DNA of 64,000 nt from Eledone cirrhosa (Eukaryota), in NCBI GenBank assembly GCA_964016885.1, contig OZ024759.1, forward strand, positions 6,696,001-6,760,000, in the 5' to 3' direction. Of the stretch, positions 6,900 to 63,595 are shown piece by piece. Positions within the stretch are counted from its first letter, which is position 1; each line of letters opens with the position of its first letter. The notes below the pieces were generated by a model, which did no database searches, was not told where the DNA came from, and saw nothing but the letters and a program-made list of their open reading frames with translations. The position numbers and the translations under genes are program-made.

Positions 6900-6995
6900 A
6901 CATATATATACACATACATACATATATATATATATATACATACATACATATATATATACATTCATATATATATATATATATATATACATACATAC

Positions 6996-7076
<81 letters not shown>

Positions 7077-7116
7077 TATATATAATTATATATATATATA
7101 TATATAATTATATATA

Positions 7117-7158
<42 letters not shown>

Positions 7159-7204
7159 TATATGTAATTATATATATATATATATATATATATAATTATA
7201 TATG

Positions 7205-7242
<38 letters not shown>

Positions 7243-7290
7243 TATATATAATTATATATATATATATATAATTATATATATAATTATATA

Positions 7291-10200
7291 TGTGTGTTTA
7301 CATACAGAATAGCTGGACACTCACAGTAAAGTGTCCAGTGAAAAACTCGGTACATCTACATATGTACACGTGTGTGTATTCATATGCATACTAGTGTTTC
7401 AGTATACATATGTGGATGTACATTTCTAACTTAATTGTTTAGGCGTCAGTCATACAAAAGTGAGTTACAAACGAAACGAAATTTAATTTCGTTTCGTTAT
7501 TTGTTTTTATCGTCTCCGCTGGGCCGGTACGTACTCACGCTCTGTGCAAATTGGTCTGCCCACTACTAATTTTCATAGAAAAAGCATATAACGATATGTG
7601 CTTTTACGATTCTCTAGAGAGGCCGGAAGATGGGTAAATATTGCTGATGAGATGTAACAACATCGAAACTGGTCCAATATTCCTTGTCTGGCTTTCTGGA
7701 GAATAGAGGAAAGGTGTTTCCTCGAAAACCAGTATGACTCTAAAAACCGGTTTGTCTGTGTGTTTACATACAGAATAGCTGGACACTCACAGTAAAGTGT
7801 CCAGTGAAAAACTCGGTACATCTACATATGTACACGTGTGTGTATTCATATGCATACTAGTGTTTCAGTATACATATGTGGATGTACATTTCTAACTTAA
7901 TTGTTTAGGCGTCAGTCATACAAAAGTGAGTTACAAACGAAACGAAATTTAATTTCGTTTCGTTATTTGTTTTTATCGTCTCCGCTGGGCCGGTACGTAC
8001 TCACGCTCTGTGCAAATTGGTCTGCCCACTACTAATTTTCATAGAAAAAGCATATAACGATATGTGCTTTTACGATTCTCTAGAGAGGCCGGAAGATGGG
8101 TAAATATTGCTGATGAGATGTAACAACATCGAAACTGGTCCAATATTCCTTGTCTGGCTTTCTGGAGAATAGAGGAAAGGTGTTTCCTCGAAAACCAGTA
8201 TGACTCTAAAAACCGGTTTGTCTGTGTGTTTACATACAGAATAGCTGGACACTCACAGTAAAGTGTCCAGTGAAAAACTCGGTACATCTACATATGTACA
8301 CGTGTGTGTATTCATATGCATACTAGTGTTTCAGTATACATATGTGGATGTACATTTCTAACTTAATTGTTTAGGCGTCAGTCATACAAAAGTGAGTTAC
8401 AAACGAAACGAAATTTAATTTCGTTTCGTTATTTGTTTTTATCGTCTCCGCTGGGCCGGTACGTACTCACGCTCTGTGCAAATTGGTCTGCCCACTACTA
8501 ATTTTCATAGAAAAAGCATATAACGATATGTGCTTTTACGATTCTCTAGAGAGGCCGGAAGATGGGTAAATATTGCTGATGAGATGTAACAACATCGAAA
8601 CTGGTCCAATATTCCTTGTCTGGCTTTCTGGAGAATAGAGGAAAGGTGTTTCCTCGAAAACCAGTATGACTCTAAAAACCGGTTTGTCTGTGTGTTTACA
8701 TACAGAATAACTGGACACTCACAGTAAAGTGTCCAGTGAAAAACTCGGTACATCTACATATGTACACGTGTGTGTATTCATATGCATACTAGTGTTTCAG
8801 TATACATATGTGGATGTACATTTCTAACTTAATTGTTTAGGCGTCAGTCATACAAAAGTGAGTTACAAACGAAACGAAATTTAATTTCGTTTCGTTATTT
8901 GTTTTTATCGTCTCCGCTGGGCCGGTACGTACTCACGCTCTGTGCAAATTGGTCTGCCCACTACTAATTTTCATAGAAAAAGCATATAACGATATGTGCT
9001 TTTACGATTCTCTAGAGAGGCCGGAAGATGGGTAAATATTGCTGATGAGATGTAACAACATCGAAACTGGTCCAATATTCCTTGTCTGGCTTTCTGGAGA
9101 ATAGAGGAAAGGTGTTTCCTCGAAAACCAGTATGACTCTAAAAACCGGTTTGTCTGTGTGTTTACATACAGAATAGCTGGACACTCACAGTAAAGTGTCC
9201 AGTGAAAAACTCGGTACATCTACATATGTACACGTGTGTGTATTCATATGCATACTAGTGTTTCAGTATACATATGTGGATGTACATTTCTAACTTAATT
9301 GTTTAGGCGTCAGTCATACAAAAGTGAGTTACAAACGAAACGAAATTTAATTTCGTTTCGTTATTTGTTTTTATCGTCTCCGCTGGGCCGGTACGTACTC
9401 ACGCTCTGTGCAAATTGGTCTGCCCACTACTAATTTTCATAGAAAAAGCATATAACGATATGTGCTTTTACGATTCTCTAGAGAGGCCGGAAGATGGGTA
9501 AATATTGCTGATGAGATGTAACAACATCGAAACTGGTCCAATATTCCTTGTCTGGCTTTCTGGAGAATAGAGGAAAGGTGTTTCCTCGAAAACCAGTATG
9601 ACTCTAAAAACCGGTTTGTCTGTGTGTTTACATACAGAATAGCTGGACACTCACAGTAAAGTGTCCAGTGAAAAACTCGGTACATCTACATATGTACACG
9701 TGTGTGTATTCATATGCATACTAGTGTTTCAGTATACATATGTGGATGTACATTTCTAACTTAATTGTTTAGGCGTCAGTCATACAAAAGTGAGTTACAA
9801 ACGAAACGAAATTTAATTTCGTTTCGTTATTTGTTTTTATCGTCTCCGCTGGGCCGGTACGTACTCACGCTCTGTGCAAATTGGTCTGCCCACTACTAAT
9901 TTTCATAGAAAAAGCATATAACGATATGTGCTTTTACGATTCTCTAGAGAGGCCGGAAGATGGGTAAATATTACTGATGAGATGTAACAACATCGAAACT
10001 GGTCCAATATTCCTTGTCTGGCTTTCTGGAGAATAGAGGAAAGGTGTTTCCTCGAAAACCAGTATGACTCTAAAAACCGGTTTGTCTGTGTGTTTACATA
10101 CAGAATAGCTGGACACTCACAGTAAAGTGTCCAGTGAAAAACTCGGTACATCTACATATGTACACGTGTGTGTATTCATATGCATACTAGTGTTTCAGTA

Positions 10201-13200
10201 TACATATGTGGATGTACATTTCTAACTTAATTGTTTAGGCGTCAGTCATACAAAAGTGAGTTACAAACGAAACGAAATTTAATTTCGTTTCGTTATTTGT
10301 TTTTATCGTCTCCGCTGGGCCGGTACGTACTCACGCTCTGTGCAAATTGGTCTGCCCACTACTAATTTTCATAGAAAAAGCATATAACGATATGTGCTTT
10401 TACGATTCTCTAGAGAGGCCGGAAGATGGGTAAATATTGCTGATGAGATGTAACAACATCGAAACTGGTCCAATATTCCTTGTCTGGCTTTCTGGAGAAT
10501 AGAGGAAAGGTGTTTCCTCGAAAACCAGTATGACTCTAAAAACCGGTTTGTCTGTGTGTTTACATACAGAATAACTGGACACTCACAGTAAAGTGTCCAG
10601 TGAAAAACTCGGTACATCTACATATGTACACGTGTGTGTATTCATATGCATACTAGTGTTTCAGTATACATATGTGGATGTACATTTCTAACTTAATTGT
10701 TTAGGCGTCAGTCATACAAAAGTGAGTTACAAACGAAACGAAATTTAATTTCGTTTCGTTATTTGTTTTTATCGTCTCCGCTGGGCCGGTACGTACTCAC
10801 GCTCTGTGCAAATTGGTCTGCCCACTACTAATTTTCATAGAAAAAGCATATAACGATATGTGCTTTTACGATTCTCTAGAGAGGCCGGAAGATGGGTAAA
10901 TATTGCTGATGAGATGTAACAACATCGAAACTGGTCCAATATTCCTTGTCTGGCTTTCTGGAGAATAGAGGAAAGGTGTTTCCTCGAAAACCAGTATGAC
11001 TCTAAAAACCGGTTTGTCTGTGTGTTTACATACAGAATAGCTGGACACTCACAGTAAAGTGTCCAGTGAAAAACTCGGTACATCTACATATGTACACGTG
11101 TGTGTATTCATATGCATACTAGTGTTTCAGTATACATATGTGGATGTACATTTCTAACTTAATTGTTTAGGCGTCAGTCATACAAAAGTGAGTTACAAAC
11201 GAAACGAAATTTAATTTCGTTTCGTTATTTGTTTTTATCGTCTCCGCTGGGCCGGTACGTACTCACGCTCTGTGCAAATTGGTCTGCCCACTACTAATTT
11301 TCATAGAAAAAGCATATAACGATATGTGCTTTTACGATTCTCTAGAGAGGCCGGAAGATGGGTAAATATTACTGATGAGATGTAACAACATCGAAACTGG
11401 TCCAATATTCCTTGTCTGGCTTTCTGGAGAATAGAGGAAAGGTGTTTCCTCGAAAACCAGTATGACTCTAAAAACCGGTTTGTCTGTGTGTTTACATACA
11501 GAATAGCTGGACACTCACAGTAAAGTGTCCAGTGAAAAACTCGGTACATCTACATATGTACACGTGTGTGTATTCATATGCATACTAGTGTTTCAGTATA
11601 CATATGTGGATGTACATTTCTAACTTAATTGTTTAGGCGTCAGTCATACAAAAGTGAGTTACAAACGAAACGAAATTTAATTTCGTTTCGTTATTTGTTT
11701 TTATCGTCTCCGCTGGGCCGGTACGTACTCACGCTCTGTGCAAATTGGTCTGCCCACTACTAATTTTCATAGAAAAAGCATATAACGATATGTGCTTTTA
11801 CGATTCTCTAGAGAGGCCGGGAGTTGGGTAAATATTGCTGATGAGATGTAACAACATCGAAACTGGTCCAATATTCCTTGTCTGGCTTTCTGGAGAATAG
11901 AGGAAAGGTGTTTCCTCGAAAACCAGTATGACTCTAAAAACCGGTTTGTCTGTGTGTTTACATACAGAATAGCTGGACACTCACAGTAAAGTGTCCAGTG
12001 AAAAACTCGGTACATCTACATATGTACACGTGTGTGTATTCATATGCATACTAGTGTTTCAGTATACATATGTGGATGTACATTTCTAACTTAATTGTTT
12101 AGGCGTCAGTCATACAAAAGTGAGTTACAAACGAAACGAAATTTAATTTCGTTTCGTTATTTGTTTTTATCGTCTCCGCTGGGCCGGTACGTACTCACGC
12201 TCTGTGCAAATTGGTCTGCCCACTACTAATTTTCATAGAAAAAGCATATAACGATATGTGCTTTTACGATTCTCTAGAGAGGCCGGAAGATGGGTAAATA
12301 TTGCTGATGAGATGTAACAACATCGAAACTGGTCCAATATTCCTTGTCTGGCTTTCTGGAGAATAGAGGAAAGGTGTTTCCTCGAAAACCAGTATGACTC
12401 TAAAAACCGGTTTGTCTGTGTGTTTACATACAGAATAGCTGGACACTCACAGTAAAGTGTCCAGTGAAAATCTCGGTACATCTACATATGTACACGTGTG
12501 TGTATTCATATGCATACTAGTGTTTCAGTATACATATGTGGATGTACATTTCTAACTTAATTGTTTAGGCGTCAGTCATACAAAAGTGAGTTACAAACGA
12601 AACGAAATTTAATTTCGTTTCGTTATTTGTTTTTATCGTCTCCGCTGGGCCGGTACGTACTCACGCTCTGTGCAAATTGGTCTGCCCACTACTAATTTTC
12701 ATAGAAAAAGCATATAACGATATGTGCTTTTACGATTCTCTAGAGAGGCCGGAAGATGGGTAAATATTGCTGATGAGATGTAACAACATCGAAACTGGTC
12801 CAATATTCCTTGTCTGGCTTTCTGGAGAATAGAGGAAAGGTGTTTCCTCGAAAACCAGTATGACTCTAAAAACCGGTTTGTCTGTGTGTTTACATACAGA
12901 ATAGCTGGACACTCACAGTAAAGTGTCCAGTGAAAAACTCGGTACATCTACATATGTACACGTGTGTGTATTCATATGCATACTAGTGTTTCAGTATACA
13001 TATGTGGATGTACATTTCTAACTTAATTGTTTAGGCGTCAGTCATACAAAAGTGAGTTACAAACGAAACGAAATTTAATTTCGTTTCGTTATTTGTTTTT
13101 ATCGTCTCCGCTGGGCCGGTACGTACTCACGCTCTGTGCAAATTGGTCTGCCCACTACTAATTTTCATAGAAAAAGCATATAACGATATGTGCTTTTACG

Positions 13201-14034
13201 ATTCTCTAGAGAGGCCGGAAGATGGGTAAATATTGCTGATGAGATGTAACAACATCGAAACTGGTCCAATATTCCTTGTCTGGCTTTCTGGAGAATAGAG
13301 GAAAGGTGTTTCCTCGAAAACCAGTATGACTCTAAAAACCGGTTTGTCTGTGTGTTTACATACAGAATAGCTGGACACTCACAGTAAAGTGTCCAGTGAA
13401 AAACTCGGTACATCTACATATGTACACGTGTGTGTATTCATATGCATACTAGTGTTTCAGTATACATATGTGAATGTACATTTCTAACTTAATTGTTTAG
13501 GCGTCAGTCATACAAAAGTGAGTTACAAACGAAACGAAATTTAATTTCGTTTCGTTATTTGTTTTTATCGTCTCCGCTGGGCCGGTACGTACTCACGCTC
13601 TGTGCAAATTGGTCTGCCCACTACTAATTTTCATAGAAAAAGCATATAACGATATGTGCTTTTACGATTCTCTAGAGAGGCCGGAAGATGGGTAAATATT
13701 GCTGATGAGATGTAACAACATCGAAACTGGTCCAATATTCCTTGTCTGGCTTTCTGGAGAATAGAGGAAAGGTGTTTCCTCGAAAACCAGTATGACTCTA
13801 AAAACCGGTTTGTCTGTGTGTTTACATACAGAATAGCTGGACACTCACAGTAAAGTGTCCAGTGAAAAACTCGGTACATCTACATATGTACACGTGTGTG
13901 TATTCATATGCATACTAGTGTTTCAGTATACATATGTGGATGTACATTTCTAACTTAATTGTTTAGGCGTCAGTCATACAAAAGTGAGTTACAAACGAAA
14001 CGAAATTTAATTTCGTTTCGTTATTTGTTTTTAT
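7291..14034 (+). mobile_element. Tandem array of a 466-bp hammerhead-containing unit (about 14.5 copies); candidate non-LTR retrozyme
   Basis: Exact 466-bp period (7291/7757/...; 7510+14x466=14034). Only about 8 substituted positions seen. One HHR per unit. (TA)n on both flanks. Confidence 0.9.
7637..7681 (+). ncRNA. Minimal type I hammerhead ribozyme (first of 14 copies; last core at 13702)
   Basis: AATATTG-CTGATGA-GATGT aaca ACATC-GAAA-C tg G-TC-CAATATT: 7-bp stem I, 5-bp stem II, vestigial stem III, GUC cleavage triplet at 7672-7674. Confidence 0.88.
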
Positions 14035-14053
14035 ATATATATAATTATATATA

Positions 14054-14113
<60 letters not shown>

Positions 14114-14119
14114 TATATA

Positions 14120-14163
<44 letters not shown>

Positions 14164-14169
14164 TATATA

Positions 14170-14245
<76 letters not shown>

Positions 14246-16590
14246 TACGTATTTAAGAAAGCCACAACAATGCAGAGGGAAATCTCGAGGTAGGAAGTGA
14301 AAGATAGATAGGAAAAACAGGTGAAAGTGAAAATTGAGAGAGACAAAGATGAAAACAAAACAAAGGTAGAAGGGTTGCCGTAGTAGAGATTTAATCCCAA
14401 TATTTCGGGCTCACGCCCATCAACGGGGGAAAGTTCCAAAAGGGGGGGAACAGGCCAAGCGGAGAAAGTTGTGATGTCGTTAAGACAGGAATGCCGTTAT
14501 GGGGAGAAAAATTATTTAAAATTTAAACGAGGGAAAGAATGCACGTGCGCGTGATAGGCGGTGGCAAAAGCTACTGACCAAATGGGTTAAATCAAGAGGG
14601 TGCGCTAGCGTGTGAAAGCCGTAAGATATGTGTGTGTAAATATATATGTGTGTGTAACTGTGTGTGTATAAGTGTAAGTGTGTATATGTGTGTGTGTGTG
14701 TGAAAGATAGTGGGCTGTAGAAGCTGGAAATCAAAGGGTGTGAAAGGTGGTAGGTTGTAAAACATGTGTGCGTGTATAAATATAGATGTGTGTGTGTAAG
14801 CGTATGGGTATACATGTGTGTGTAACTGTGTGTGTATATGTGTGAGTGCGTTTGTGTGTGAAAGATCGTGGGCTGTAGAAGCTGGAAATCAAAGGGTGTG
14901 AAAGGTGGTAGGTTGTAAAAACATGTGTGCGTGTATAAATATAGATGTGTGTGTATGCGTATGGGTATGCATATACGTGCGTGTGTGTGAAGATAGCAGG
15001 CCGTAGGCTGTGAATGGTCACTATGGTTAAGTTAGCCATGTCAGCTCATTTCTCTCAGCCCGGTTGTTAAGTGGGGGTCTGAGGTTCTTAATAACAAGTG
15101 CTTCCTTTATCCTTAAGGATCCGATGCTGCGTTCAGTCGCTAGGACTGTGACCAAGGGTCTACCCTGTGGGTTTCCGCATTTAAGGATGTGTTTACGGAA
15201 GGAAGATGCGTTGGTGTTGATATGTTCCTTGATACGAACATGTAGGGGTCGGATGGTGCTACCTATGTAAAACTTGTTACATTTATCGCATTGAATCTTA
15301 TATACGACATAGGTGCGTAGGCAATCTGCCCCCCGTATCGGACAGTTGCTGAGGGAACACGTCCCATCTGACTCGTCGGGTTTGTTGGAGAGGCATCTTC
15401 GCAGCGAAGGTCCTGTGTGGGCCAAATGTATGTCAAGTCCCTCCGTCCGTATGGCCCTGCGGATGGCGTTCGTGGTATATTCACTCAGGTGGGGGATTTT
15501 AAAGAAGCACCTGCTATTATTTAATTTTCTAGTGGGTGTCTGTCTATTGGGTCTGGGGTCTCTAATTCCGTTAATCAGTCGCTTGGGATAACCATTAGAT
15601 CTGAGTAGATTACGGAATTGTGTGGTATGGGTGGTCTCACCCATACCACACAATTCCGCGGATCCTTAAGGATAAAGGAAGCACTTGTTATTAAGAACCT
15701 CAGACCCCCACTTAACAACCGGGCTGAGAGAAATGAGCTGACATGGCTAACTTAACCATAGTGACCATTCACAGCCTACGGCCTGCTATCTTCATACACA
15801 CGCACGTATATGCATACCCATACGCATACACACACACATCTATAGTTATACACGCACACATGTTTTTACAACCTACCACCTTTCACACCCTTTGATTTCC
15901 AGCTTCTACAGCCCACTATCTTTCACACACAAACGCACTCACACATATACACACACAGTTACACACACATGTATACCCATACGCTTACACACACACATCT
16001 ATATTTATACACGCACACATGTTTTACAACCTACCACCTTTCACACCCTTTGATTTCCAGCTTCTACAGCCCACTATCTTTCACACACACACACACTCAC
16101 ACATATACACACTTACACTTATACACACACAGTTACACACACATATATATTTACACACACATATCTTACGGCTTTCACACGCTAGCGCACCCTCTTGATT
16201 TAACCCATTTGGTCAGTAGCTTTTGCCACCGCCTATCACGCGCACGCGCATTCTTTCCCTCGTTTAAATTTTAAATAATTTTTCTCCCCATAACGGCATT
16301 CCTGTCTTAACGACATCACAACTTTCTCCGCTTGGCCTGTTCCCCCCCTTTTGGAACTTTCCCCCGTTGATGGGCGTGAGCCCTAAATATTGGGATTAAA
16401 TCTCTACTACGGTAACCCTTCTACCTTTGTTTTGTTTTCATCTTTGTCTCTCTCAATTTTCACTTTCACCTGTTTTTCCTATCTATCTTTCACTTCCTAC
16501 CTCGAGATTTCCCTCTGCATTGTTGTGGCTTTCTTAAATACGTATTTTACACATTTCACAATGCTTCAAGCAAACTTTAACACCCTCATA
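14246..16590. mobile_element. 5'-truncated Penelope-like element with inverted arms, in (TA)n
   Basis: Minus arm 14246-15633 and plus arm 15659-16590 are reverse complements over about 880 bp. A variant HHR-like motif (CCGTTGAT GGGC gtga GCCC GAAA TATT) is on the minus strand near 14395-14430. Confidence 0.88.
15027..15633 (-). pseudogene. PLE ORF C-terminal fragment (RT thumb end + GIY-YIG endonuclease)
   Basis: LRSNGYP, CSLSNCPI, VVYKIQCDKCNKFYIGSTIRPLHVRIKEH, IKEALVI and LN motifs. Confidence 0.85.
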
Positions 16591-16605: not shown

Positions 16606-16773
<168 letters not shown>

Positions 16774-17514
16774 AGATTTGAATGGATACAGTTTAGTTGA
16801 AAGGAATTTATTGACACGTGTTTCTATAACAGTTACATAACCTAAAACAGCTATCTACAAACTTTTAGTTATGCAGACATTCAATATTTCAATGTTATTG
16901 TTTACTGTCATTTCATCAGAATAATATTACTGAGGACCTATTTAGTTTTTATAGAGAATATTAGGAGGAAGGGGTGAAGTTGTTAGAAGAATAGTTGAAG
17001 GAGTGGTTTTTCGATAGCAGTGAGAATTCTTGGTGGCAGTGATTAATTAGATTCCCATCTGTTGTTTTGACATTTTTTATAGAATATATTATTGGTTATT
17101 TTTCTAAATCTATAGAAGGATTAGAGATAGTAAAGATATGCGTGGTTGGTTTTGTGTTTGCACTTAACATTCAGACTTAAATTTTTCTTTCAAGTGTACG
17201 TATTCTTTCACCCACGCATTCACACACAAATATATTTGCACACCTCTACAAAATACATATACTCACAATTCACATATTCATACTTACATATATATACACA
17301 TGCATACACATATATATACACACATGTATTCATGTACATACATACGCGCTCATGTGTATACATTTTCATACTCAACTTATCTTTATATATACACACGTAT
17401 AGACACACACATATATACATACATACTCTAGTCCATGTGTACACACATACACATACATACACATCCATATACACATACATACATACACATATATATATAC
17501 ATATATACATATAC

Positions 17515-17561
<47 letters not shown>

Positions 17562-17978
17562 CATATATACACACATATACACACACACACCCATATATAT
17601 ATATATATATAAGCACTTTAATACATGAATACACTTACATCTAACTATACACATCAAACATATATATATATTTACTTATTTATATACATTTTCACATATA
17701 TATACATACTTATGGACGTTTTTAGACACATTCATTATCGCATATTTGTACCTATTCTCATCAGCATATCTTTTCATTATTAGTATGGTAATTTAAGGTT
17801 ATTAATATATGTTGAAAAGAGATTGTTTTTATATTTTTCTAACTAGATTAAGGTTTATATAGTTGGGGGATGTCCCTCTTTTATGTAATATTCGGCTTGT
17901 AGTGGGAAAAAAGGGTTTTAGTTCTGTGACGGCAGAATAATGTTCGTTCAATTCTGTTATTCAGCAGTTTCTTCTTGT

Positions 17979-18568
17979 ACATAAAAAAGATCAATACTAG
18001 AAGGTTAAACGAAAACACTAAGAACTTAAGTACAAAGAACCCCCAAAAAACAGTAGACAATACACTACAGAACATAAATAAACCACACCTAAGTTCGTCC
18101 GCAATACTACTCCAGAGAAAACCCAACGTACACAACTGTAACTGCACCTATCCTGACAACTGCCCCCTCGGCAATAACTGCCTGGAAAAAAATATTATTT
18201 ATAAGTGTACCATTAAATCCGGAGGCAACGAGTGGTATTACGTGGGATCAACGGCAACATCGTTTAAATCTCGATTGTATAGGCATTCTTACTCAATAAA
18301 ACACCAGAGCCAAAGAAATGTAACAACTTTAGCAGAGAAAGCTTGGACGCTCAGGGATAGCAATCAAAAGTTTACCCTAAAATGGGAAAAATTAGCTAAA
18401 ACCCAAAGCTTTTCCAGGAGCCAAAATTTCTGCAAATTGTGTAATCTTGAGATTTATTACATAATCACACACAAGAAGAAACTGCTGAATAACAGAATTG
18501 AACGAACATTATTCTGCCGTCACAGAACTAAAACCCTTTTTTCCCACTACAAGCCGAATATTACATAA
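17979..18568 (+). pseudogene. Duplicated GIY-YIG-coding 3' part of the PLE ORF within the upstream pseudo-LTR
   Basis: Translation is identical to the C-terminus of 19844-22165. Confidence 0.88.
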
Positions 18569-18887
18569 AAGAGGGACATCCCCCAACTATATAAACCTTA
18601 ATCTAGTTAGAAAAATATAAAAACAATCTCTTTTCAACATATATTAATAACCTTAAATTACCATACTAATAATGAAAAGATATGCTGATGAGAATAGGTA
18701 CAAATATGCGATAATGAATGTGTCTAAAAACGTCCATAAGTATGTATATATATGTGAAAATGTATATAAATAAGTAAATATATATATATGTTTGATGTGT
18801 ATAGTTAGATGTAAGTGTATTCATGTATTAAAGTGCTTATATATATATATATATATGGGTGTGTGTGTGTATATGTGTGTATATATG

Positions 18888-18931
<44 letters not shown>

Positions 18932-19520
18932 AGTATATGTATATATGTATATATATATGTGTATGTATGTATGTGTATATGGATGTGTATGTATGTGTAT
19001 GTGTGTACACATGGACTAGAGTATGTATGTATATATGTGTGTGTCTATACGTGTGTATATATAAAGATAAGTTGAGTATGAAAATGTATACACATGAGCG
19101 CGTATGTATGTACATGAATACATGTGTGTATATATATGTGTATGCATGTGTATATATATGTAAGTATGAATATGTGAATTGTGAGTATATGTATTTTGTA
19201 GAGGTGTGCAAATATATTTGTGTGTGAATGCGTGGGTGAAAGAATACGTACACTTGAAAGAAAAATTTAAGTCTGAATGTTAAGTGCAAACACAAAACCA
19301 ACCACGCATATCTTTACTATCTCTAATCCTTCTATAGATTTAGAAAAATAACCAATAATATATTCTATAAAAAATGTCAAAACAACAGATGGGAATCTAA
19401 TTAATCACTGCCACCAAGAATTCTCACTGCTATCGAAAAACCACTCCTTCAACTATTCTTCTAACAACTTCACCCCTTCCTCCTAATATTCTCTATAAAA
19501 ACTAAATAGGTCCTCAGTAA

Positions 19521-19570
19521 TATTATTCTGATGAAATGACAGTAAACAATAACATTGAAATATTGAATGT
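19521..19570 (+). ncRNA. Candidate minimal hammerhead in the PLE pseudo-LTR (also about 23121-23170, and minus about 16878-16927)
   Basis: CTGATGA-AATG...CATT-GAAA-TATT; stem I pairing is weak. Confidence 0.45.
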
Positions 19571-19843
19571 CTGCATAACTAAAAGTTTGTAGATAGCTGT
19601 TTTAGGTTATGTAACTGTTATAGAAACACGTGTCAATAAATTCCTTTCAACTAAACTGTATCCATTCAAATCTTTCTATTTTTCTCCGGATTACTTTTGG
19701 AACTACAACTGGAACCGTCGAGCAAACTCTACGTGAGCTGATAATCTACTGTGTGTAATATTTATATTACAACACAACGGAAAAAACTGTATATTTACCT
19801 CCTGTAAAGTCGAGCAACCCACACAGCAAACGCAACCACAACA

Positions 19844-22165
19844 ATGGAAAAACACTACCTGGATATGTCACTCAAAAACATACCAACCCAAGGTAGAAAG
19901 GAATATTTATTGAGCATGATTCAAAAAACTAATGAATTCATTCGACGTGTCAGGTGGAAAACGCTCCACTATGATAGAAGCCGTATGAACTCAACATTAG
20001 AAAGTGGTGTAAACAAAAAATTCGGTTTTAGGACTTGTAAAAACCCACCCACCAACCCACTATTAGATGCATTTGAGCAGGACCTTATGAACTTAATCCT
20101 TAAAATTAAATTCAAAGGACGCAACACCAACAGCAAATTACAGAAAGATATAAAAAAACTACTGGACGACCTTAAAAACACCAAAGGAATTGTAGTAAAA
20201 GCGGACAAAACATCAAACCTGTACACTATGGATTGCACTACATACAACAACTTCATTCGAAAAGAATTACATAAAAAATATAGAAAAACGAGTGAAGTAA
20301 CCCTTAAGCACATCAATGATGAGGCATGCGAAATAGTGAAAAATCTCGGAATCGAAGATAGGACAGGACCACTCTTACCGGCGGTACCCACTTTCAATCT
20401 TAAGGACCACAAGGTAAACTTTGATAATGACCCTAAAATTAGATTAATCTGCCCCTCTAAATCAGATATAGGTAAAATAAGCAAATATATCTTAGATAGA
20501 ATCATCCCCCAAATTAAGGCTAAGGTTAACATTAAACTCTGGGGGAAGACCCAAGAAGCAATAAGATGGTTTAATAGCATTAGCAATAAGAATAAATCTA
20601 AGTTTATCCAGTTTGATATCGATGAATATTACTCATCGATATCACCTGAAACTTTGAATAGAGCCATTAAGTTTGCTAAGGATAACTCCGACCTTACAAA
20701 CGATGAAATTAAGATTATATTAGAAGCTAGGAAAACTATAGTCAAATTTGAGAACAGTTATTGGGTACGTAAAGATAGACCCTCTAACTTTGACATAACA
20801 ATGGGCTCTAACGATTCAGCGGAAATAACTGATATTGTGGGGTTATTTATCGCCTTTAGACTCCAGGAAAAATTCAGCAATCTCCACGGCGGAATATACC
20901 GCGACGATGTTCTCCTCCTAGCTAAAAACCTTAATAACCAAAAACTAGAAAAACTACGCAAAGATATAAGAAAACTACTACTCGAAATAGGACTAACTAT
21001 AACATATGAATACAACCTTAAAGTAGTTAACTTCCTGGATGTCACACTCAATTTAAACTCTGGTTTGATTAAACCGTTTCATAAATTGAATGAAAATCTC
21101 AAATACGTAAATGTTGGGTCTAACCACCCCATCTCTATAATTAAATCTATCCCTAAAAATATTTCCCTTAGAATCTCGGGTCTATCTTCTAACATACAAG
21201 TATTTAAGGAACACGCCGAGTACTACGATAACGCCCTTAGTAAAGCAGGCTACCTCAACAAAATAGAGTACATAGATGGGAACAATCAAAACACCCAAAA
21301 TAAATCCCACATAGGTAGATATAATAACACAACACCAAACCACACTTACCACCATAGTATGCACACCAGTAAACCAACAAACAAAACTAATAGAAAGCGA
21401 TGCAAAGAGTACTTATGGTATAACCCCGAATACAATAGCTCCATTAGTACAAATTTACCAGTACTCTTCTTTAAAATAATTAAAAGACATTTTCCCACAT
21501 CACACAAATACCACAAAATCCTAAACCCTACCACTATAAGACTGTCATACTCTACAGCGTTAAACCTTGAACAACACATAAAAAAGATCAATACTAGAAG
21601 GTTAAACGAAAACACTAAGAACTTAAGTACAAAGAACCCCCAAAAAACAGTAGACAATACACTACAGAACATAAATAAACCACACCTAAGTTCGTCCGCA
21701 ATACTACTCCAGAGAAAACCCAACGTACACAACTGTAACTGCACCTATCCTGACAACTGCCCCCTCGGCAATAACTGCCTGGAAAAAAATATTATTTATA
21801 AGTGTACCATTAAATCCGGAGGCAACGAGTGGTATTACGTGGGATCAACGGCAACATCGTTTAAATCTCGATTGTATAGGCATTCTTACTCAATAAAACA
21901 CCAGAGCCAAAGAAATGTAACAACTTTAGCAGAGAAAGCTTGGACGCTCAGGGATAGCAATCAAAAGTTTACCCTAAAATGGGAAAAATTAGCTAAAACC
22001 CAAAGCTTTTCCAGGAGCCAAAATTTCTGCAAATTGTGTAATCTTGAGATTTATTACATAATCACACACAAGAAGAAACTGCTGAATAACAGAATTGAAC
22101 GAACATTATTCTGCCGTCACAGAACTAAAACCCTTTTTTCCCACTACAAGCCGAATATTACATAA
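19844..22165 (+). CDS. PLE polyprotein, 773 aa: reverse transcriptase + C-terminal GIY-YIG endonuclease
   Basis: KADKT, LKDHK, FDIDEYYSSI, TMGSNDSAE, GIYRDD, NFLDVTL, SNHP. Then CNC..CPL..C linker, IIYKC..YYVGST, CKLCNLE and CRH. No stops. Confidence 0.93.
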   Translation: MEKHYLDMSLKNIPTQGRKEYLLSMIQKTNEFIRRVRWKTLHYDRSRMNSTLESGVNKKFGFRTCKNPPTNPLLDAFEQDLMNLILKIKFKGRNTNSKLQKDIKKLLDDLKNTKGIVVKADKTSNLYTMDCTTYNNFIRKELHKKYRKTSEVTLKHINDEACEIVKNLGIEDRTGPLLPAVPTFNLKDHKVNFDNDPKIRLICPSKSDIGKISKYILDRIIPQIKAKVNIKLWGKTQEAIRWFNSISNKNKSKFIQFDIDEYYSSISPETLNRAIKFAKDNSDLTNDEIKIILEARKTIVKFENSYWVRKDRPSNFDITMGSNDSAEITDIVGLFIAFRLQEKFSNLHGGIYRDDVLLLAKNLNNQKLEKLRKDIRKLLLEIGLTITYEYNLKVVNFLDVTLNLNSGLIKPFHKLNENLKYVNVGSNHPISIIKSIPKNISLRISGLSSNIQVFKEHAEYYDNALSKAGYLNKIEYIDGNNQNTQNKSHIGRYNNTTPNHTYHHSMHTSKPTNKTNRKRCKEYLWYNPEYNSSISTNLPVLFFKIIKRHFPTSHKYHKILNPTTIRLSYSTALNLEQHIKKINTRRLNENTKNLSTKNPQKTVDNTLQNINKPHLSSSAILLQRKPNVHNCNCTYPDNCPLGNNCLEKNIIYKCTIKSGGNEWYYVGSTATSFKSRLYRHSYSIKHQSQRNVTTLAEKAWTLRDSNQKFTLKWEKLAKTQSFSRSQNFCKLCNLEIYYIITHKKKLLNNRIERTLFCRHRTKTLFSHYKPNIT

Positions 22166-22484
22166 AAGAGGGACATCCCCCAACTATATAAACCTTAATC
22201 TAGTTAGAAAAATATAAAAACAATCTCTTTTCAACATATATTAATAACCTTAAATTACCATACTAATAATGAAAAGATATGCTGATGAGAATAGGTACAA
22301 ATATGCGATAATGAATGTGTCTAAAAACGTCCATAAGTATGTATATATATGTGAAAATGTATATAAATAAGTAAATATATATATATGTTTGATGTGTATA
22401 GTTAGATGTAAGTGTATTCATGTATTAAAGTGCTTATATATATATATATATATGGGTGTGTGTGTGTATATGTGTGTATATATG

Positions 22485-22530
<46 letters not shown>

Positions 22531-23385
22531 AGTATATGTATATATGTATATATATATGTGTATGTATGTATGTGTATATGGATGTGTATGTATGTGTATG
22601 TGTGTACACATGGACTAGAGTATGTATGTATATATGTGTGTGTCTATACGTGTGTATATATAAAGATAAGTTGAGTATGAAAATGTATACACATGAGCGC
22701 GTATGTATGTACATGAATACATGTGTGTATATATATGTGTATGCATGTGTATATATATGTAAGTATGAATATGTGAATTGTGAGTATATGTATTTTGTAG
22801 AGGTGTGCAAATATATTTGTGTGTGAATGCGTGGGTGAAAGAATACGTACACTTGAAAGAAAAATTTAAGTCTGAATGTTAAGTGCAAACACAAAACCAA
22901 CCACGCATATCTTTACTATCTCTAATCCTTCTATAGATTTAGAAAAATAACCAATAATATATTCTATAAAAAATGTCAAAACAACAGATGGGAATCTAAT
23001 TAATCACTGCCACCAAGAATTCTCACTGCTATCGAAAAACCACTCCTTCAACTATTCTTCTAACAACTTCACCCCTTCCTCCTAATATTCTCTATAAAAA
23101 CTAAATAGGTCCTCAGTAATATTATTCTGATGAAATGACAGTAAACAATAACATTGAAATATTGAATGTCTGCATAACTAAAAGTTTGTAGATAGCTGTT
23201 TTAGGTTATGTAACTGTTATAGAAACACGTGTCAATAAATTCCTTTCAACTAAACTGTATCCATTCAAATCTTTCTATTTTTCTCCGGATTACTTTTGGA
23301 ACTACAACTGGAACCGTCGAGCAAACTCTACGTGAGCTGATAATCTACTGTGTGTAATATTTATATTACAACACAACGGAAAAAA

Positions 23386-23458
<73 letters not shown>

Positions 23459-23781: not shown

Positions 23782-24230
23782 TATTAAGTTGTTAAACAAT
23801 ATTCGATGATTATGTCAAATAACGAGTTTTACAATAGATTGGAAGCACTCAACAGAAATTAATTTTCAGGAGTTATTAATATTAAAATATAAGTATTAAT
23901 AAAATAGATGTTCTTTTGATCAATTACCTTTTATTATACATATTTCGGAGGTACAACAGTACGTCCTCATCAGACAAAATGTAATGATACATGACATACC
24001 CTGAGATGCTAAATGGTTGAGATTTAATCAAGGTAGTTGATTAAATCTTAACCATCTTGATTAAATCTTAACTACCTTGATTAAATTTTAACCATTTAAC
24101 ATCTCAGGGTATGTCATGTATCATTATATTTTTGTCTGATGAGGACGTACTATTGTACATCCGAAATATGTATAATAAAAGGTAATTGATCAAAAGAACA
24201 TCTATTTTATTAATACTTATATTTTAATAT
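23779..24230. mobile_element. Short fold-back PLE-type insertion with an HHR on each arm
   Basis: Arms about 23879-24038 and 24068-24230. Plus-strand CTGATGA GGA..GTAC..GTAC..TCC GAAA TATG TA at 24136. Confidence 0.75.
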
Positions 24231-26654: not shown

Positions 26655-27392
<738 letters not shown>

Positions 27393-27418: not shown

Positions 27419-27995
<577 letters not shown>

Positions 27996-31055: not shown

Positions 31056-32651
31056 CGTTTCTGAATTTGTTTAGCAAGATTCTTTATCTGAAATCGTGTG
31101 TTGAAACCGATATTGTTATACTTTGGGAGGGTCATGTTGCCAATAAGAAACACACGCACCAGTTGCTTTCACTTCAATTTAATTTAATATATATTTATAA
31201 ATTTACAAATTTATAAATTTCTGGTTGGTTGGTTGGTTCCACAACCAGATAGTTGTTTATATATATATAGTCATAGTTCTTTCGTCACACACTCTGTGAC
31301 CTCTTCAGTGACTGGGGATTTCTTTCTTCGTTTCTGTGCCTTTCCTTTCTTCTATCCTACGCCATTTTGTTTGTGTGTGGGTTGCGTGCTCAGTTTGCGC
31401 ATGCGCCACATCCGGGTGTCTGTGTGTGTTTGTGTTCATTTTTCTATTTTTCTATTTATATTTGTTTGTTTATTTATTTATTTATTGTTGGTTGGTTGTT
31501 TGTTCTATGTGTGTGTGTGTTTTCATTTTGTCTTGTGTGTGTTTTCATTTTGTGTGTGTTTTCAATTGTAAGTTGTTTGTTCTATGTGTGTGTGTGTTTT
31601 CATTTTGTCCTTAATTGTAAGTTGTGATGTTGCTGTTCCACTCATATTTTCTATTTAATTTTGGTTTTAATTCTTTTATGCTTACTGCCTCTGTAATTTG
31701 CCTAAACATTGCGTCTTTCTTGTGTGTGGATTCTATTTTTATTTCTATGCTCTCTAATTTACCCCTGTGTTCTATCTTAGCATGTTGGTAGAGCACAGAT
31801 GATTCTTTACTATCTTGGAGGTCTCGCCAGTGTTCATTTATTCGTTCCCCTATACTACGAGCTGTCTCACCTATGTACACTACATTATAGTGTACATAGG
31901 TGAGACAGCTCGTAGTATAGGGGAACGGATAAATGAACACTGGCGAGACCTTCAAGATAATAAAGAATCATCTGTACTCTACCAACATGCTAAGATAGAA
32001 CACAAGGGTAAATTAGAGAACATAGAAATAAAAATAGAATCTACACACAGAAAAGACGCAATGTTTAGACAAATTACAGAGGCAATAAACATAAAAGAAT
32101 TACAACCAAAATTAAATAGAAATTATGAGTGGAACAGCAACATCACAACTTACAATTAAGGACAAAATGAAAACACACACACACATATATAAACAACTTA
32201 CAATTGAAAACACACACAAAATGAAAACACACACAAGACAAAATGAAAACACACACACACATAGAACAAACAACCAACCAACAATAAATAAATAAATAAA
32301 CAAACAAATATAAATAGAAAAATAGAAAAATGAACACAAACACACACAGACACCCGGATGTGGCGCATGCGCAAACTGAGCACGCAACCCACAAACAAAC
32401 AAAATGGCGTAGGATAGAAGAAAGGAAAGGCACAGAAACGAAGAAAGAAATCCCCAGTCACTGAAGAGGTCACAGAGTGTGTGACGAAAGAACTATGACT
32501 ATATATATATAAACAACTATCTGGTTGTGGAACCAACCAACCAACCAGAAATTTATAAATTTGTAAATTTATAAATATATATTAAATTAAATTGAAGTGA
32601 AAGCAACTGGTGCGTGTGTTTCTTATTGGCAACATGACCCTCCCAAAGTAT

Positions 32652-32657
<6 letters not shown>
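31054..32657. mobile_element. Symmetric fold-back PLE remnant (GIY-YIG end + pLTR), related to the element at 57752-63366
   Basis: Palindrome centred near 31884. Both arms encode YIGETARSIGERINEHW..RQITEA..LNR.YEW. Confidence 0.88.
32456..32500 (+). ncRNA. Type I hammerhead in the pLTR (minus-strand relatives near 31270-31315, 34962-35005 and 38120-38166)
   Basis: AGTCA-CTGAAGA-gGTCAC..GTGAC-GAAA-GAAC-TA-TGACT. Confidence 0.78.
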
Positions 32658-32710
<53 letters not shown>

Positions 32711-34319: not shown

Positions 34320-34684
34320 AATATTGTAGAACAATAAAACTATGCATATATCAGATAAGTAGCACTCGACAGTTGGTAGAACTGGAGTATATATAATAAA
34401 GAAGAAACTAAAAGATGGTTAAAAGAGTTCCATATATTTTATTATGCGCATTTCGAATACAAAATCATCCTGGGACATAAATTGTGTTCTCATCAGATAA
34501 AATAAGGTAACATATGAGGCATAATAGCACTTTCCTGTAAACAACTGCTATTATGCCTCATATAATGTTACCCTATTTTATCTGATGAGAACACAATTAT
34601 TGTCCTAGGATGATTTTGTATTCGAAGTGCGCATAATAAAATATATGGAACTCTTTTAACCATCTTTTAATTTCTTCTTTATTA

Positions 34685-34690
<6 letters not shown>
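34320..34690. mobile_element. Fold-back HHR-bearing pLTR remnant
   Basis: Inverted arms centred near 34538; CTGATGA..GAA(A/G)TGCGCATA on both strands. Confidence 0.7.
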
Positions 34691-35342: not shown

Positions 35343-35543
35343 ACATATGTGTATATATGCGCGGGAACATTGAAATAATAAGGCTGGATACCCGATCGCG
35401 CGGTTAAACCACTGCGAGTGAAGGACCCCTAGCCCTTGTCAGGGCATTCTTCTAGGAGGAGGTAACTCAGGAAACTGGAATAACTCCAACATAAAACCTG
35501 CAACTCAGTAGTTACCGATGATGTTGATCTTTTCTTCTTTTCG
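35128..35543 (+). mobile_element. RTE-derived element, 5' half
   Basis: Reverse complement of about 6465-6899. Confidence 0.65.
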
Positions 35544-36785
35544 GTTGTCTGGACTGATGTTAGGCCTCTGCCTCCCTGCTTACGTTTCAAGTAAAGGCGG
35601 TCTATGTCACTGTTGATGTGGAAGTTTCTGGTGTTGTTGAGTATTATTCGAGTTTTAACCACAATTGCTCGGATTTCGTCTATCGTCCAATTGAGTATTC
35701 CAAACGTTGGTGTTAGGACTGGCACAGCAAACACATTGTGAGCCACTGTTTTGTTTTGCGGAGAGAGTTCCGATGACCAGATCTTTCTTAATCGGGTGTA
35801 GTATTCCCTGGTTACGCGTTCTTTGTTACAGATACTATTATAGGATATGTTCTCATCTATCCCCAGGTATCTGTAGCAGTCCTTATCAGACATCAATGAA
35901 ACAGTTAGGCCATTGATAACAATGTTGCTAGATTGGGTTGTTGTTTTTCCTTGCTTTACAGTCATATATGAGCATTTATCTTGGCCAAACTCCATTCCTA
36001 TATCCTTTGAGAATGTTGTAACCAGGTCAAGAACTTTCTTCATCCCATCCATGTTCTTGGCATAGAGTTTCAGATCGTCCTCAAAGAAATTATGGGTTAG
36101 GTTCGTATTTCTGTCCTCCTGTGAGCCAATGATGTATCCTTCACATTTCTTGAGCAGAAAGGACAAGGGGTTTAATGACAGGATAAATAGTATCACAGAG
36201 AGTCTGCCTCCTTGAAATATACCCCTGCGATATTTTATTTTATCAGTGAAAATAGAGTCTTCCTTCTCTGTTATGAACTTTAGAAGAGTAGCCCAAAAGA
36301 AGAAGACAGCTTCTCTATGGCTCTGATAATAATGTCTGGTACTTTAGCAAGTCGGGGGGGGGGGGGGGGCTCTATCATCCAAGAGTGGGGAACAGAATCG
36401 AAAGCTTTCCTATAGTCCAGCCAGACTGTAGTCATATTCCTCCTAAGTTGTCGCACCTCCGACATCGCAGTTTTGTTGATTAGGAGTTGTTCAGCACATC
36501 CCCAAACCCCTTTCTTTCCAGCTGCTTGTTCATCTGTGATGATGTTATTATCCCGCCGAGGTTAACTTTGCCTTTCATCCTTACGGGGTCGATGAAATAA
36601 AGTACCTGTAATACACTGACTGGGTAATTGCTAGCCTTGTGCCAAAAGTAGAAACAGTTATTATTTTCACAGTGATCTTGGAGGAATAGGTTCAGGCAGG
36701 CTGTATACATCTTATACATCAGGTTCTGGCAAGCAATGGGTCGGTAGTTTTTTGCCAAGTGGGTGCCTTTGTTCTTGGGGACCAG
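35544..36785 (-). mobile_element. R4/Dong-type RT fragment, interrupted by a SINE at about 36552-36655
   Basis: NYRPIAC, WLDYRKAFDSVPHSW, GIFQG, FEDDLKLY; nearly identical to 1-520. Frameshifted. Confidence 0.85.
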
Positions 36786-39678: not shown

Positions 39679-39982
39679 TCATATGAGATATATTAAAGAT
39701 GTCATTCCCCAAACGAATCGTTTCATTATAACATTTCTACATTGTGGGTGAAATTATAGCAAGTTATGTAGAATATAGTATATATAGTATATATAAAGTT
39801 TCAAGTTTCATACAGTATTTCGTAGTTTTCCTATGTTTGTGTGAGCCTGAAGCCAGTTTCCAAGAGCCTCGTCAGACGTCTCACGTGTGTATGAAACTAA
39901 ATAAGCTCTCTTGCAGTAATTTGAGCGGCACCTCGCCCTTTATGGCACCTCGCCCTACGTCCAGAGCCCTAGCATCCCCCCT

Positions 39983-40565
39983 CTGTGACACTACAGTCCC
40001 CCCTCCCCTCCCTTCAGTGACACTACAGTCCCCACCCTGCCCCTCCTCTCTGACACTACAGTCATACCCCTCACCCCTGTGACACTACAGTCCTCCCCTT
40101 CCCCCTCCCTCTGTGACACTACAGTCATCCCCCTCCCTCCTGTGGCACTACAGTCCACCTCCCTTCTGTGACACTACACTCCCTCCTCCCCCTCCTCTGT
40201 GACACTACAGTCCTCCCCCTCACCCCTGTGATACTATAGCCCTCCCCTTCCCTCTCCCTCCTGTGATACTACAGTCTTCCCCCTCCCTCCTGTGACACTA
40301 CAGTCCCCATCCCCCTCCTCTGTGACACTAAAGTCATCCCCCTCACCCCTGTGACACTACAGTCCTCTCCTTCCCCCTCCCTCCTGTGACACTACAGCCC
40401 CCCCCCCCGTGACACTACAATCCCCCCTCCTCTGTAACACTACAGTCCCCCCTCCTGTGACACTACAACCCCCCCCCCCCCCTTCCCGTGACACTAAAGT
40501 CCCCCCCTCCTCTGTGACACTACAGTCATCTCCCTCCCTCGTGTGACACTAAAGTCCCCCCCTCT
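39983..40565. repeat. C-rich minisatellite (GTGACACTACAGTC + C/T tract, variable unit near 30 bp)
   Basis: Directly visible; the minus strand is rich in G runs. Confidence 0.9.
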
Positions 40566-42127: not shown

Positions 42128-42931
<804 letters not shown>

Positions 42932-45214: not shown

Positions 45215-46978
45215 CTCTCTCTCACCAACAACTGATTCTTTTTTTCAAATACCACTTTTGAAGAAGAATCAGGATGGAGGGAGAGGTGCTGTACCCCAGG
45301 ATGGAGGGAGAGGTGCTGTACCCCAGGATGGAGGGAGAGGTGCTGTACCCCAGGATGGAGGGAGAGGTGCTGTACCCCAGGATGGAGGGAGAGGTGCTGT
45401 ACCCCAGGATGGAGGAAGAGGTGCTGTACCCCAGGATGGAGAGAGGGGTGCTGTACCCCAGGATGGAGAGAGAGGTGCTGTACCCCAGGATGGAGAGAGA
45501 GGTGCTGTACCCCAGGATGTAGGGAGAGGTGCTGTACCCCAGGATGGAGGGAGAGGTGCTGTACCCCAGGATGGAGAGAGAGGTGCTGTACCCCAGGATG
45601 GAGAGAGGGGTGCTGTACCCCAGGATGGAGAGAGAGGTGCTGTACCCCAGGATGGAGAGAGAGGTGCTGTACCCCAGGATAGAGAGAGGGGTGCTGTACC
45701 CCAGGATGGAGAGAGGGGTGCTGTACCCCAGGATGGAGAGAGAGGTGCTGTACCCAGGGATGGAGAGAGGGGTGCTGTACCCCAGGATAGAGAGAGGGGT
45801 GCTGTACCCCAGGATGGAGAGAGGGGTGCTGTACCCCAGGATGGAGAGAGAGGTGCTGTACCCCAGGATGGAGAGAGGGGTGCTGTACCCCAGGATGGAG
45901 AGAGAGGTGCTGTACCCCAGGATGGAGAGAGAGGTGCTGTACCCCAGGATGGAGAGAGAGGTGCTGTACCCCAGGATGGAGAGAGGGGTGCTGTACCCCA
46001 GGATGGAGAGAGGGGTGCTGTACCCCAGGATGGAGAGAGAGGTGCTGTACCCCAGGATGGAGAGAGAGGTGCTGTACCCCAGGATGGAGAGAGAGGTGCT
46101 GTACCCCAGGATGGAGAGAGAGGTGCTGTACCCCAGGATGGAGAGAGGGGTGCTGTACCCCAGGATGGAGAGAGGGGTGCTGTACCCCAGGATAGAGAGA
46201 GGGGTGCTGTACCCCAGGATGGAGAGAGAGGTGCTGTACCCCAGGATGGACAGAGAGGTGCTGTACCCCAGGATGGAGAGAGAGGTGCTGTACCCCAGGA
46301 TGGAGAGAGAGGTGCTGTACCCCAGGATGGAGAGAGAGGTGCTGTACCCCAGGATGGAGAGAGAGGTGCTGTACCCCAGCAAGTTTTATGAAAGGTGGGT
46401 GAAAGTGGCGATAATGGCCCGAGTGAATGGGCCTTCTCTCTATATCAGCCTGTTGGTTGAGGAAAAGGAGGAGGAGAGGAAAGGAGTACAAACTCTTCGT
46501 ACTCCTGGAGATGAGGGTTGCACATATTTTTTCGGGGATATGTGTTACCCATATAAACTGTCTCCCCCTATTGGGGAAAATCGACTAATTTTTAAATTGC
46601 ATTTGTGATAATATTCTACACGTTTTAATTGTATGTAAACTTCCCCCTTTGTATTTGTCCCCTTCTTTTGTGCCCCTGTGGCTAATAAAGAAACATATCT
46701 CTCTGAATGTGGCAAAGATGGCCCGAGTGGTTGGGCCTTCTCTCTATATAAGCCTGTAGGTTGAGGAAAAAGAGGAAGAGAGGAAGGAAGTACTCACTCT
46801 TGGTGCTCCTGGAGATGAGGGTTGTACATTTTTTCGGAGTGTGTACCCCCCCCCTATTGGGGATTTAAATTGTTATTTGTTGTTTTATTAATAGTTTTAT
46901 TTTCATATACCTGTATGCAAACTCCCCATTTGTATTTGTCCCCTTCTTTTGTGCCCTTGTGGCTAATAAAGAAATTTA
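45215..46978 (+). mobile_element. Probable Tx1/L1-like LINE 3' end with a duplicated tail
   Basis: LILFFKYH..IRMEREVLYPSKFYERW followed by a 3' UTR with AATAAA. 46399-46695 is repeated at 46705-46974. Confidence 0.45.
45270..46379. repeat. 27-bp minisatellite, about 41 copies
   Basis: Unit CAGGATGGAGAGAGAGGTGCTGTACCC. Confidence 0.95.
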
Positions 46979-47807: not shown

Positions 47808-48009
47808 TAGACATGGCTTAATGTCTAGAGGGGTATGAGCGTCGGGCATACGATCGGGAGGTCGTCAGTTCGATTCTCGGACTGGGCTTTACGTTGTGTC
47901 CTTGAGCAAGACATTTTATTTCACATTGCTCCAGTTTACTCAGCTGTAGAGTTGTGACGTCACTGGTACCAAGCTGTATCAGCCATTGCTTTTCCCTTGG
48001 ACAACATCA
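47808..48009 (+). mobile_element. tRNA-derived SINE, 5' part
   Basis: B box CAGTTCGATTC; TCCTTGAGCAAGAC..GCTCCAGTTTACTCAGCTGTAG is shared with 26301-26641. Confidence 0.75.
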
Positions 48010-56526: not shown

Positions 56527-56633
56527 CATCTATATTAAAACTTTTATACTCTGCTATGTATTGAGTACCTTACTTACTGTGGTTACCTCCGATTCAACCC
56601 GGAATAACGTATATATATATATATATATATATA

Positions 56634-56791
<158 letters not shown>

Positions 56792-56792
56792 T

Positions 56793-57245: not shown

Positions 57246-57248
57246 ATA

Positions 57249-57302
<54 letters not shown>

Positions 57303-57367
57303 TATATATATATATAATTATATATATATATATATATAATTATATATATATATATATATATAATTAT

Positions 57368-63371: not shown

Positions 63372-63457
<86 letters not shown>

Positions 63458-63462
63458 TATAC

Positions 63463-63511
<49 letters not shown>

Positions 63512-63546
63512 TATATACATATATATATATATATAATTATATATAC

Positions 63547-63595
<49 letters not shown>

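Follow-up and report, generated by a model that had tools for sequence, protein, structure and literature searches.

The closest described relatives of the element reported here are the retrozymes of Metazoa without long terminal repeats (non-LTR retrozymes), which have units of 150-450 bp and for which the action of a Penelope-like element (PLE) reverse transcriptase (RT) on a circle has been proposed (PMC7229834); in amphibian hammerheads a weak palindromic helix III has been tied to dimeric cleavage (PMC7229834). Another study regards animal retrozymes as non-autonomous PLE derivatives, with units of 51-972 bp and up to 300 repeats (10.64898/2026.07.22.740005). PLE insertions themselves are characterised by inverted arms and a one-sided tail of 30-40 bp (PMC8557442), the tail reflecting two internal RT start sites (PMC11167929). 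Finally, hyper-editing of repeat RNA by ADAR leaves clustered, strand-specific A-to-G changes with G depleted upstream (PMC5625713). Here we describe a tandem array at positions 7291-14034 (plus strand) of a 64,000-nucleotide stretch of the Eledone cirrhosa genome (assembly GCA_964016885.1, contig OZ024759.1, positions 6,696,001-6,760,000), hereafter called the window. Judged from its sequence, the array belongs to an animal non-LTR retrozyme family with at least 1,835 insertions, and this family is a new member of an already known class of element. We consider it likely that this retrozyme was put into (TA)n by a borrowed Penelope-like RT, which probably circled repeatedly on one RNA that had undergone adenosine-to-inosine (A-to-I) editing.

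Results

Structure of the array and its hammerhead

The insertion is one-armed and consists of 14.47 head-to-tail units of 466 bp, with its 5' end at unit position 1 and its 3' end at unit position 220. Tandem-repeat analysis returned a period of 466, 14.5 copies and 99% matches, and only 8 substitutions were found across all 14.47 units. The unit has a GC content of 38.6%, and the array has no terminal repeats other than the unit itself. A (TA)n-rich target tract (6902-7290) lies on the left and a (TA)n tract common to the array and an adjoining truncated PLE (14035-14241) on the right; since both flanks are (TA)n, a target-site duplication is unreadable. Recurring TATAATTATA interruptions were seen in these two tracts and in a third at 63367-63880. 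The longest ATG frame of the unit, 82 codons in antisense, was open in 1 of 45 gap-free haplotypes; lacking conservation among haplotypes, it was rejected as a gene, and the unit contains no credible open reading frame.

On the plus strand of unit 1 a type I hammerhead occupies 7637-7681, with cleavage predicted after 7674, and it recurs every 466 bp through unit 14. All 14 full units contain stem I (AATATTG/CAATATT), the core CTGATGA, GAAA and the GTC cut triplet, together with a stem II of 5 bp and a stem III of 2 bp; two units have a G>A change at the closing base of stem I. The 2-bp helix III is a palindrome, ACTAGT, across the family and reads ACTGGT in the window array. Rfam gave no match at gathering score anywhere in the window. 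Compared with a sister retrozyme family, 6 of 16 pairs in stems I and II had changed on both sides, and 93% of cells were paired versus 36-49% in slid controls, a test of covariation that draws on two related families and thus on few independent events. The unit fold was far more stable than that of shuffled sequences (z = -9.2; 0 of 100 shuffles as stable), and 67-70% of bases were paired when the unit was folded as a circle. Separately, the cut base was T (GUU instead of GUC) in 35 of 88 insertions, often accompanied by a changed stem II pair.

These results agree with an earlier annotation made from the letters alone (the sequence-only reading), which had described about 14.5 near-identical 466-bp units with one type I hammerhead each, no credible open reading frame and (TA)n on both sides. 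It had also called 466 nt larger than usual, which does not hold against the published ranges of 150-450 and 51-972 bp cited above.

A dispersed and long-lived family

An exact join between unit position 220 and (TA)n occurred at least 1,835 times genome-wide, against 0 for the control, and one hammerhead variant alone had 2,635 exact copies. The unit was spread over many contigs of the 3.0-Gb assembly (40 of 424 candidates scored). Subfamilies lay up to 9-10% from the majority, and divergence within arrays ranged from 0 to more than 2%; the family is therefore long-lived and still active. Thus, the description 'very young' fits some insertions and fails for the family as a whole. In the published literature outside Dfam, Repbase and subscription journals we found no account of this family, and likewise none of retrozymes with paired fixed ends or with edit sets that recur across their genomic units.

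One arm, at G000:C2:204669850-204702610 (L179-L181), comprised about 69 units with 0 differences in 26.6 kb sampled. It carried two A>G changes and was paired with a second arm of 0.4 unit; its perfection may mean that it arose very recently, or may come from the assembly process. The sister family has units of 426-440 nt, homologous across the full unit, with its own hammerhead bearing a GUA cut and the same helix III palindrome. It was seen at L057:527-3763 and also in L040, L067, L039, L121, L108, L155, L075, L046 and L164; the units of L057 alternate between two types, and the core of two units is disrupted, with CAAA in place of GAAA. Sequencing runs X4, X5 and X6, labelled as three other organisms, contained the unit at 90-99% identity over window positions 7310-7750, matches that may reflect relatives, mislabels or carry-over. 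In X4 and X5, contigs of 495-497 bases that close into a loop were considered as circular RNA and rejected, as a collapsed DNA tandem repeat gives the same result.

Two fixed 3' ends and paired arms

The ends of insertions were compared in two sets. Set 1 comprised the window array and 38 insertions chosen by similarity, not by ends (n = 39); set 2 comprised 60 of the first 61 listed junctions at unit position 220 (site A) on contig C1, or 59 after removing one duplicate. Prior to counting, L099 was removed as a duplicate of L098 and L130 was merged into L074. In set 1, 66 of 69 outer 3' ends lay at site A or at a second position, unit 146/151 (site B), with a TA-rich flank at 61 of the 66, and the 39 insertions divided into 27 head-to-head A+B pairs, 0 A+A, 0 B+B, 9 one-armed and 3 with one irregular end. 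Set 2, chosen on site A, gave 34 A+B, 0 A+A, 18 one-armed and 7 irregular. An inverted, 5'-truncated second arm was present in 30 of 39 and 41 of 59 insertions, respectively, and 5' ends were distributed all round the unit.

Sites A and B are spaced 69-74 nt apart, each preceded by a hairpin and a T-rich run. In the window, a 13-bp hairpin and T-rich run end at site A (13993-14034, plus strand) and join directly to (TA)n, marking the putative reverse-transcription start of the array. The corresponding feature of site B, a long purine-pyrimidine hairpin and T-rich run, lies at 7351-7441 (plus strand) and ends at 7436/7441 in unit 1; this site serves the second arm at other loci and is not an end here. 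The window array is thus a one-armed site-A insertion. Its ends, at unit positions 1 and 220, both lie away from the predicted cut site at unit position 384, as had been noted previously; they had, however, been taken for unrelated points of the unit, whereas the 3' end falls at a site fixed throughout the family. Likewise, the variable phase anticipated for dispersed arrays was found at the 5' end only. Even in the much diverged sister family, 9 of the 10 ends shown fell at homologous sites, and contigs of sequencing run X1, which may be the assembly's own source, had TA joined at the same three unit positions.

By analogy with PLEs, the strict A+B pairing would be the footprint of the Penelope 'tail', left by two internal RT starts (PMC11167929), and such internal starts would account for a template RNA without a 3' end. 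Together, the two fixed 3' ends, the inverted arms and the (TA)n target support the Penelope-type mobilisation suggested by the sequence-only reading.

A-to-G changes repeated in every unit

Nine A-to-G changes distinguish the window array from its sister subfamily (plus strand, 7396-7671; in unit 1 at 7396, 7442, 7522, 7523, 7544, 7553, 7619, 7632 and 7671), and each is present in every window unit covering it. Relative to its ten nearest sampled relatives, the array differed at 8-11 sites, and on the ribozyme strand 7-9 of these were A>G; relative to the sister unit in L033, it differed by the nine A>G changes and one change private to L033. Direction was assigned from nearest relatives and column majority, not from a tree. 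When searched genome-wide as patterns, the window's helix III variant occurred in the window's 14 units only, a looser pattern adding two loci of other backgrounds, and the double change at unit 232/233 occurred in the window array only. Outside the window, the change at unit 254 turned up in a single unit, in a further array and in L085, where the pattern had failed to detect it.

In a comparison of 98 insertions, private changes (those confined to a single insertion) that were fixed through all of its rounds numbered 13 A>G and 2 T>C, in contrast to 23 A>G and 31 T>C among single-unit changes (Fisher P = 0.003; 0.023 without the window); 'private' was judged within these 98, out of a family of at least 1,835, except for the patterns searched genome-wide. 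A separate test set of 13 insertions, chosen for one common A>G marker that was itself not counted, contained 29 A>G, 3 T>C and 10 other extra changes, the extra A>G falling in 6 of the 13. L182 and L186 provide cleaner test cases than the window array. L182 (1005-8213) is two-armed, and eight A>G recur in every one of the 15-16 rounds making up its two arms. L186 (1751-2515), also two-armed, had 17 A>G, and its 1.2-unit arm covers the same stretch twice with six identical edits. In both, the changes were A>G on the ribozyme strand regardless of the arm's chromosomal direction. Sequence context was also biased: among 41 edited-site events, which are not independent of one another, G was scarce 5' of the edited A (2 versus 6.7 expected, P = 0.026) and U or A stood there at 36 sites (P = 0.001). 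We suggest that these sets point to ADAR-edited RNA, probably circular, that was copied repeatedly.

Besides the non-independence of these events and the restricted sample on which privacy was judged, several observations weigh against editing by ADAR. Extra A>G changes were absent from 7 of the 13 marker-chosen insertions; pairing in the monomer fold was no higher at edited sites (0.60-0.67) than at the remaining A (0.62); and a 3' G was mildly enriched (P = 0.038), whereas a 3' A is given for invertebrates (PMC5625713). It could be that the A-to-G sets arose instead as assembly artefacts, through polymerase bias or as changes collected over unsampled generations. Indeed, the window haplotype is known from the assembly alone, and the perfect 32-kb arm on C2 raises assembler homogenisation. 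None of these would be expected to place A>G on the ribozyme strand in either arm direction, as in L182 and L186, to cluster 17 such changes in one insertion, to deplete 5' G or to leave single-unit changes symmetric, and no intermediates with part of the window haplotype were found. We therefore regard a non-ADAR origin as very improbable.

Most of the window's G alleles were missing from the contigs of run X1; as contigs lose rare variants and X1 perhaps comes from a different individual, this has no bearing in either direction. An excess of C>T in private fixed changes (7 versus 1) was gone when judged against nearest relatives (11 versus 11). Four-gamete counts were higher for A/G (mean 14.9) than for C/T (9.1), but highest for A/T (21.6), and were not used as support.

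Repeated copying of one template

Arms longer than one unit accounted for 111 of 159, and over 345 arm passes across the ribozyme cut site, 1 indel lay close by and stops near it numbered 8 versus 5.1 expected (P = 0.15). Since neither stops nor indels pile up, the template was continuous over the cut, whether as a circle, an uncut multimer or through seamless jumps. Furthermore, locus-private changes of any kind were present on both arms in 15 of the 17 cases checked. Because editing acts per molecule and per unit, and the same set appears on repeated passes and on both arms, the simplest explanation is one short molecule read repeatedly from two starts. A circle would account directly for this repetition.

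The same retrozyme and PLE motor might nevertheless have used a linear template, either an uncut multimer or a cut, edited monomer with seamless jumps, the long arrays then being locally duplicated. A number of findings favour this and weigh against rolling on a circle. Block duplications were seen in the older long arrays L110, L044 and L127, and in the window array two variants recur in non-adjacent units (4 + 8 and 6 + 9); 14.5 units therefore need not equal 14.5 rounds of reverse transcription, and part of the array's length may be local duplication. One arm, in L034, stops exactly at the cut site. Unprocessed RNA is the main PLE substrate in vitro and hammerhead cleavage is unnecessary for insertion there (PMC11167929), and among animal retrozymes self-cleavage was reported in only 1 of 9 dimers (10.64898/2026.07.22.740005). 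Moreover, at the DNA level a circle looks the same as cut linear monomers linked by seamless jumps. On the other hand, editing of a linear multimer would differ by unit, yet L186 repeats six edits over two passes in its 1.2-unit arm, and L182 has its eight edits on both arms, including positions 152 and 164, which on a multimer the two arms would first read from different units. The absence of any pile-up at the cut site in the 345 passes likewise argues against a linear template, which we consider unlikely but worth keeping in view. As regards rolling copying of a 466-nt circle, the mode proposed from the letters alone, repeated copying of one template is thus supported, and copying of the full array length is not, as local duplication is possible.

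Neighbouring PLEs and the candidate motor

Three PLEs are present in the window, all of them lying in (TA)n. Adjoining the array is a 5'-truncated GIY-YIG PLE (14241-16590); its arms are inverted, and its two 3' ends are separated by about 44 nt. A Hydra-type PLE (16770-23396, plus strand) has an open frame of 785 aa (19808-22165) with RWK, DKT and CxCX5C motifs, a tandem and an inverted arm, and two 3' ends about 115 nt apart. The third, a Neptune/Nematis-type PLE (57749-63366, plus strand), has an open frame of 1201 aa (59243-62848), an inverted arm matching at 100% identity along 1459 bp, and a pair of 3' ends separated by about 55 nt; its frame contains a long asparagine-rich insert. The Hydra-type and Neptune/Nematis-type elements are candidate motors, the sequence-only reading having taken one of the window's intact PLEs for the likely one. 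Their frames were classed by motifs following PMC8557442, and neither matched Pfam at E 0.001. We regard the assignment of the putative enzyme to the Penelope-like class as well supported.

The three window PLEs shared no sequence with the unit beyond composition, and a profile run over 943 kb (including 30 GIY-YIG loci and the three window PLEs) found no autonomous PLE with a homologous end. A local match between the unit and the pseudo-long terminal repeat (pLTR) of the Hydra-type PLE (score 63; shuffles up to 60) was rejected, being due to a purine-pyrimidine-rich stretch without which it disappears. The unit could still come from an autonomous PLE outside the sample, either as its pLTR or as a DNA-level satellite derived from it, with the hammerhead as a passenger. 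In Xenopus, 24 of 57 retrozyme families are homologous to Repbase elements, nearly all of them PLE ends (10.64898/2026.07.22.740005), and the present genome contains 10,597 GIY-YIG candidates, the ends having been viewed for 30 and for chance encounters. However, at 60 site-A junctions, 0 corresponded to the end of a same-strand PLE (RT/GIY-YIG) frame, so that the unit was not simply a pLTR in this sample; to be one would, according to the sequence-only reading, have refuted its proposal. In addition, the sole matches of the 943-kb profile beyond the family itself were to the sister retrozyme family. A DNA-level route is opposed by the strand-biased A>G sets and paired fixed ends, which need an RNA step, and a passenger role by the covariation of the ribozyme stems between families. 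An origin of either kind consequently appears improbable.

Several other features were noted in the window. Short inverted-repeat elements in (TA)n occur at 23879-24230, 26718-27392, 27473-27808, 34388-34690, 42228-42471 and 56614-57362; several have hammerhead-like cores, and they are likely to represent other non-autonomous PLE-type families. A 1.55-kb palindrome at 31110-32659 has arms that are 97% identical and is 72% like the end of the 59243-62848 frame. A reverse transcriptase fragment lies on the minus strand at 35429-36343 (RVT_1, E 6.8e-11), and minisatellites of about 29, 27, 11 and 69 bp lie at 39978-40564, 45270-46379, 48009-49840 and 49897-52544, respectively.

Discussion

The results presented above suggest the following model. 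A tandem locus would be transcribed and, as in the known class, its hammerheads would release 466-nt monomers that are ligated to circles, cutting probably taking place as dimers via the palindromic helix III. ADAR would edit some of these RNA molecules, as the A-to-G sets indicate. A PLE endonuclease would then cut (TA)n, and reverse transcription would begin at fixed internal sites, two in all, each serving one end of the broken DNA; here the fixed ends and their strict pairing were observed directly, and it is the enzyme that we infer. Each cDNA would run past the ribozyme site for a variable length, as the arms record, and the two cDNAs would be joined head to head, or else the site-A arm alone would be left, as in the window. 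Long arrays may later gain or lose units through local duplication, of the kind seen at other loci.

Taken to its full extent, the model would make each insertion the trace left by one RNA circle: a Penelope-like RT acting as a dimer would start at two fixed sites on an ADAR-edited, ribozyme-made circle, roll, extend both ends of the DNA break and write the edits into the germline genome, where they would feed the element's evolution. The window array would then be such a record, with nine edits. We judge the chances of this joint reading, including its evolutionary part, to be evenly balanced. If true, it would describe a natural route for A-to-I RNA edits into heritable DNA, as well as a compact, target-primed rolling-circle system. 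Copying of RNA circles of animal retrozymes by Penelope-like enzymes has been proposed since 2020 (PMC7229834), the proposal being put forward there and not shown. The family supplies exact predicted start sites, a rule of one site per arm and single-molecule edit barcodes, so that the proposal becomes directly testable with purified PLE protein.

How, then, does this family compare with known systems? In common with metazoan non-LTR retrozymes (PMC7229834), it has non-coding tandem units with one type I hammerhead each, a GC content below 50%, a highly self-paired unit and a weak palindromic helix III. That work proposes the RT step without showing it, and the word 'inverted' does not occur in its main text; here, fixed paired ends and repeated A-to-G sets, known from DNA alone, would record the step. 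Similarly, the unit falls within the 51-972 bp of the retrozymes of 10.64898/2026.07.22.740005 and, like them, is dispersed and co-occurs with PLEs. The latter study argues from co-occurrence and pLTR homology and favours local amplification, its main text containing no junction or editing analysis; the window unit had no pLTR homologue in the 943 kb searched.

With PLE insertions (PMC11167929, PMC8557442) the family shares two fixed 3' ends, an inverted 5'-truncated arm, an AT-rich or (TA)n target and a start inside the RNA. It differs from them in its tail of 69-74 nt rather than 30-40 nt, in being non-coding and in having multi-unit arms that strictly pair site A with site B. The A-to-G changes resemble ADAR hyper-editing (PMC5625713) in being clustered and strand-specific, with G depleted upstream. 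They depart from it in their 3' neighbour, which is not the one preferred in invertebrates, and in that the marks here stand in the genome itself, as fixed changes that recur in each unit. The DNA record of the proposed copying step is, in this family, unusually clear.

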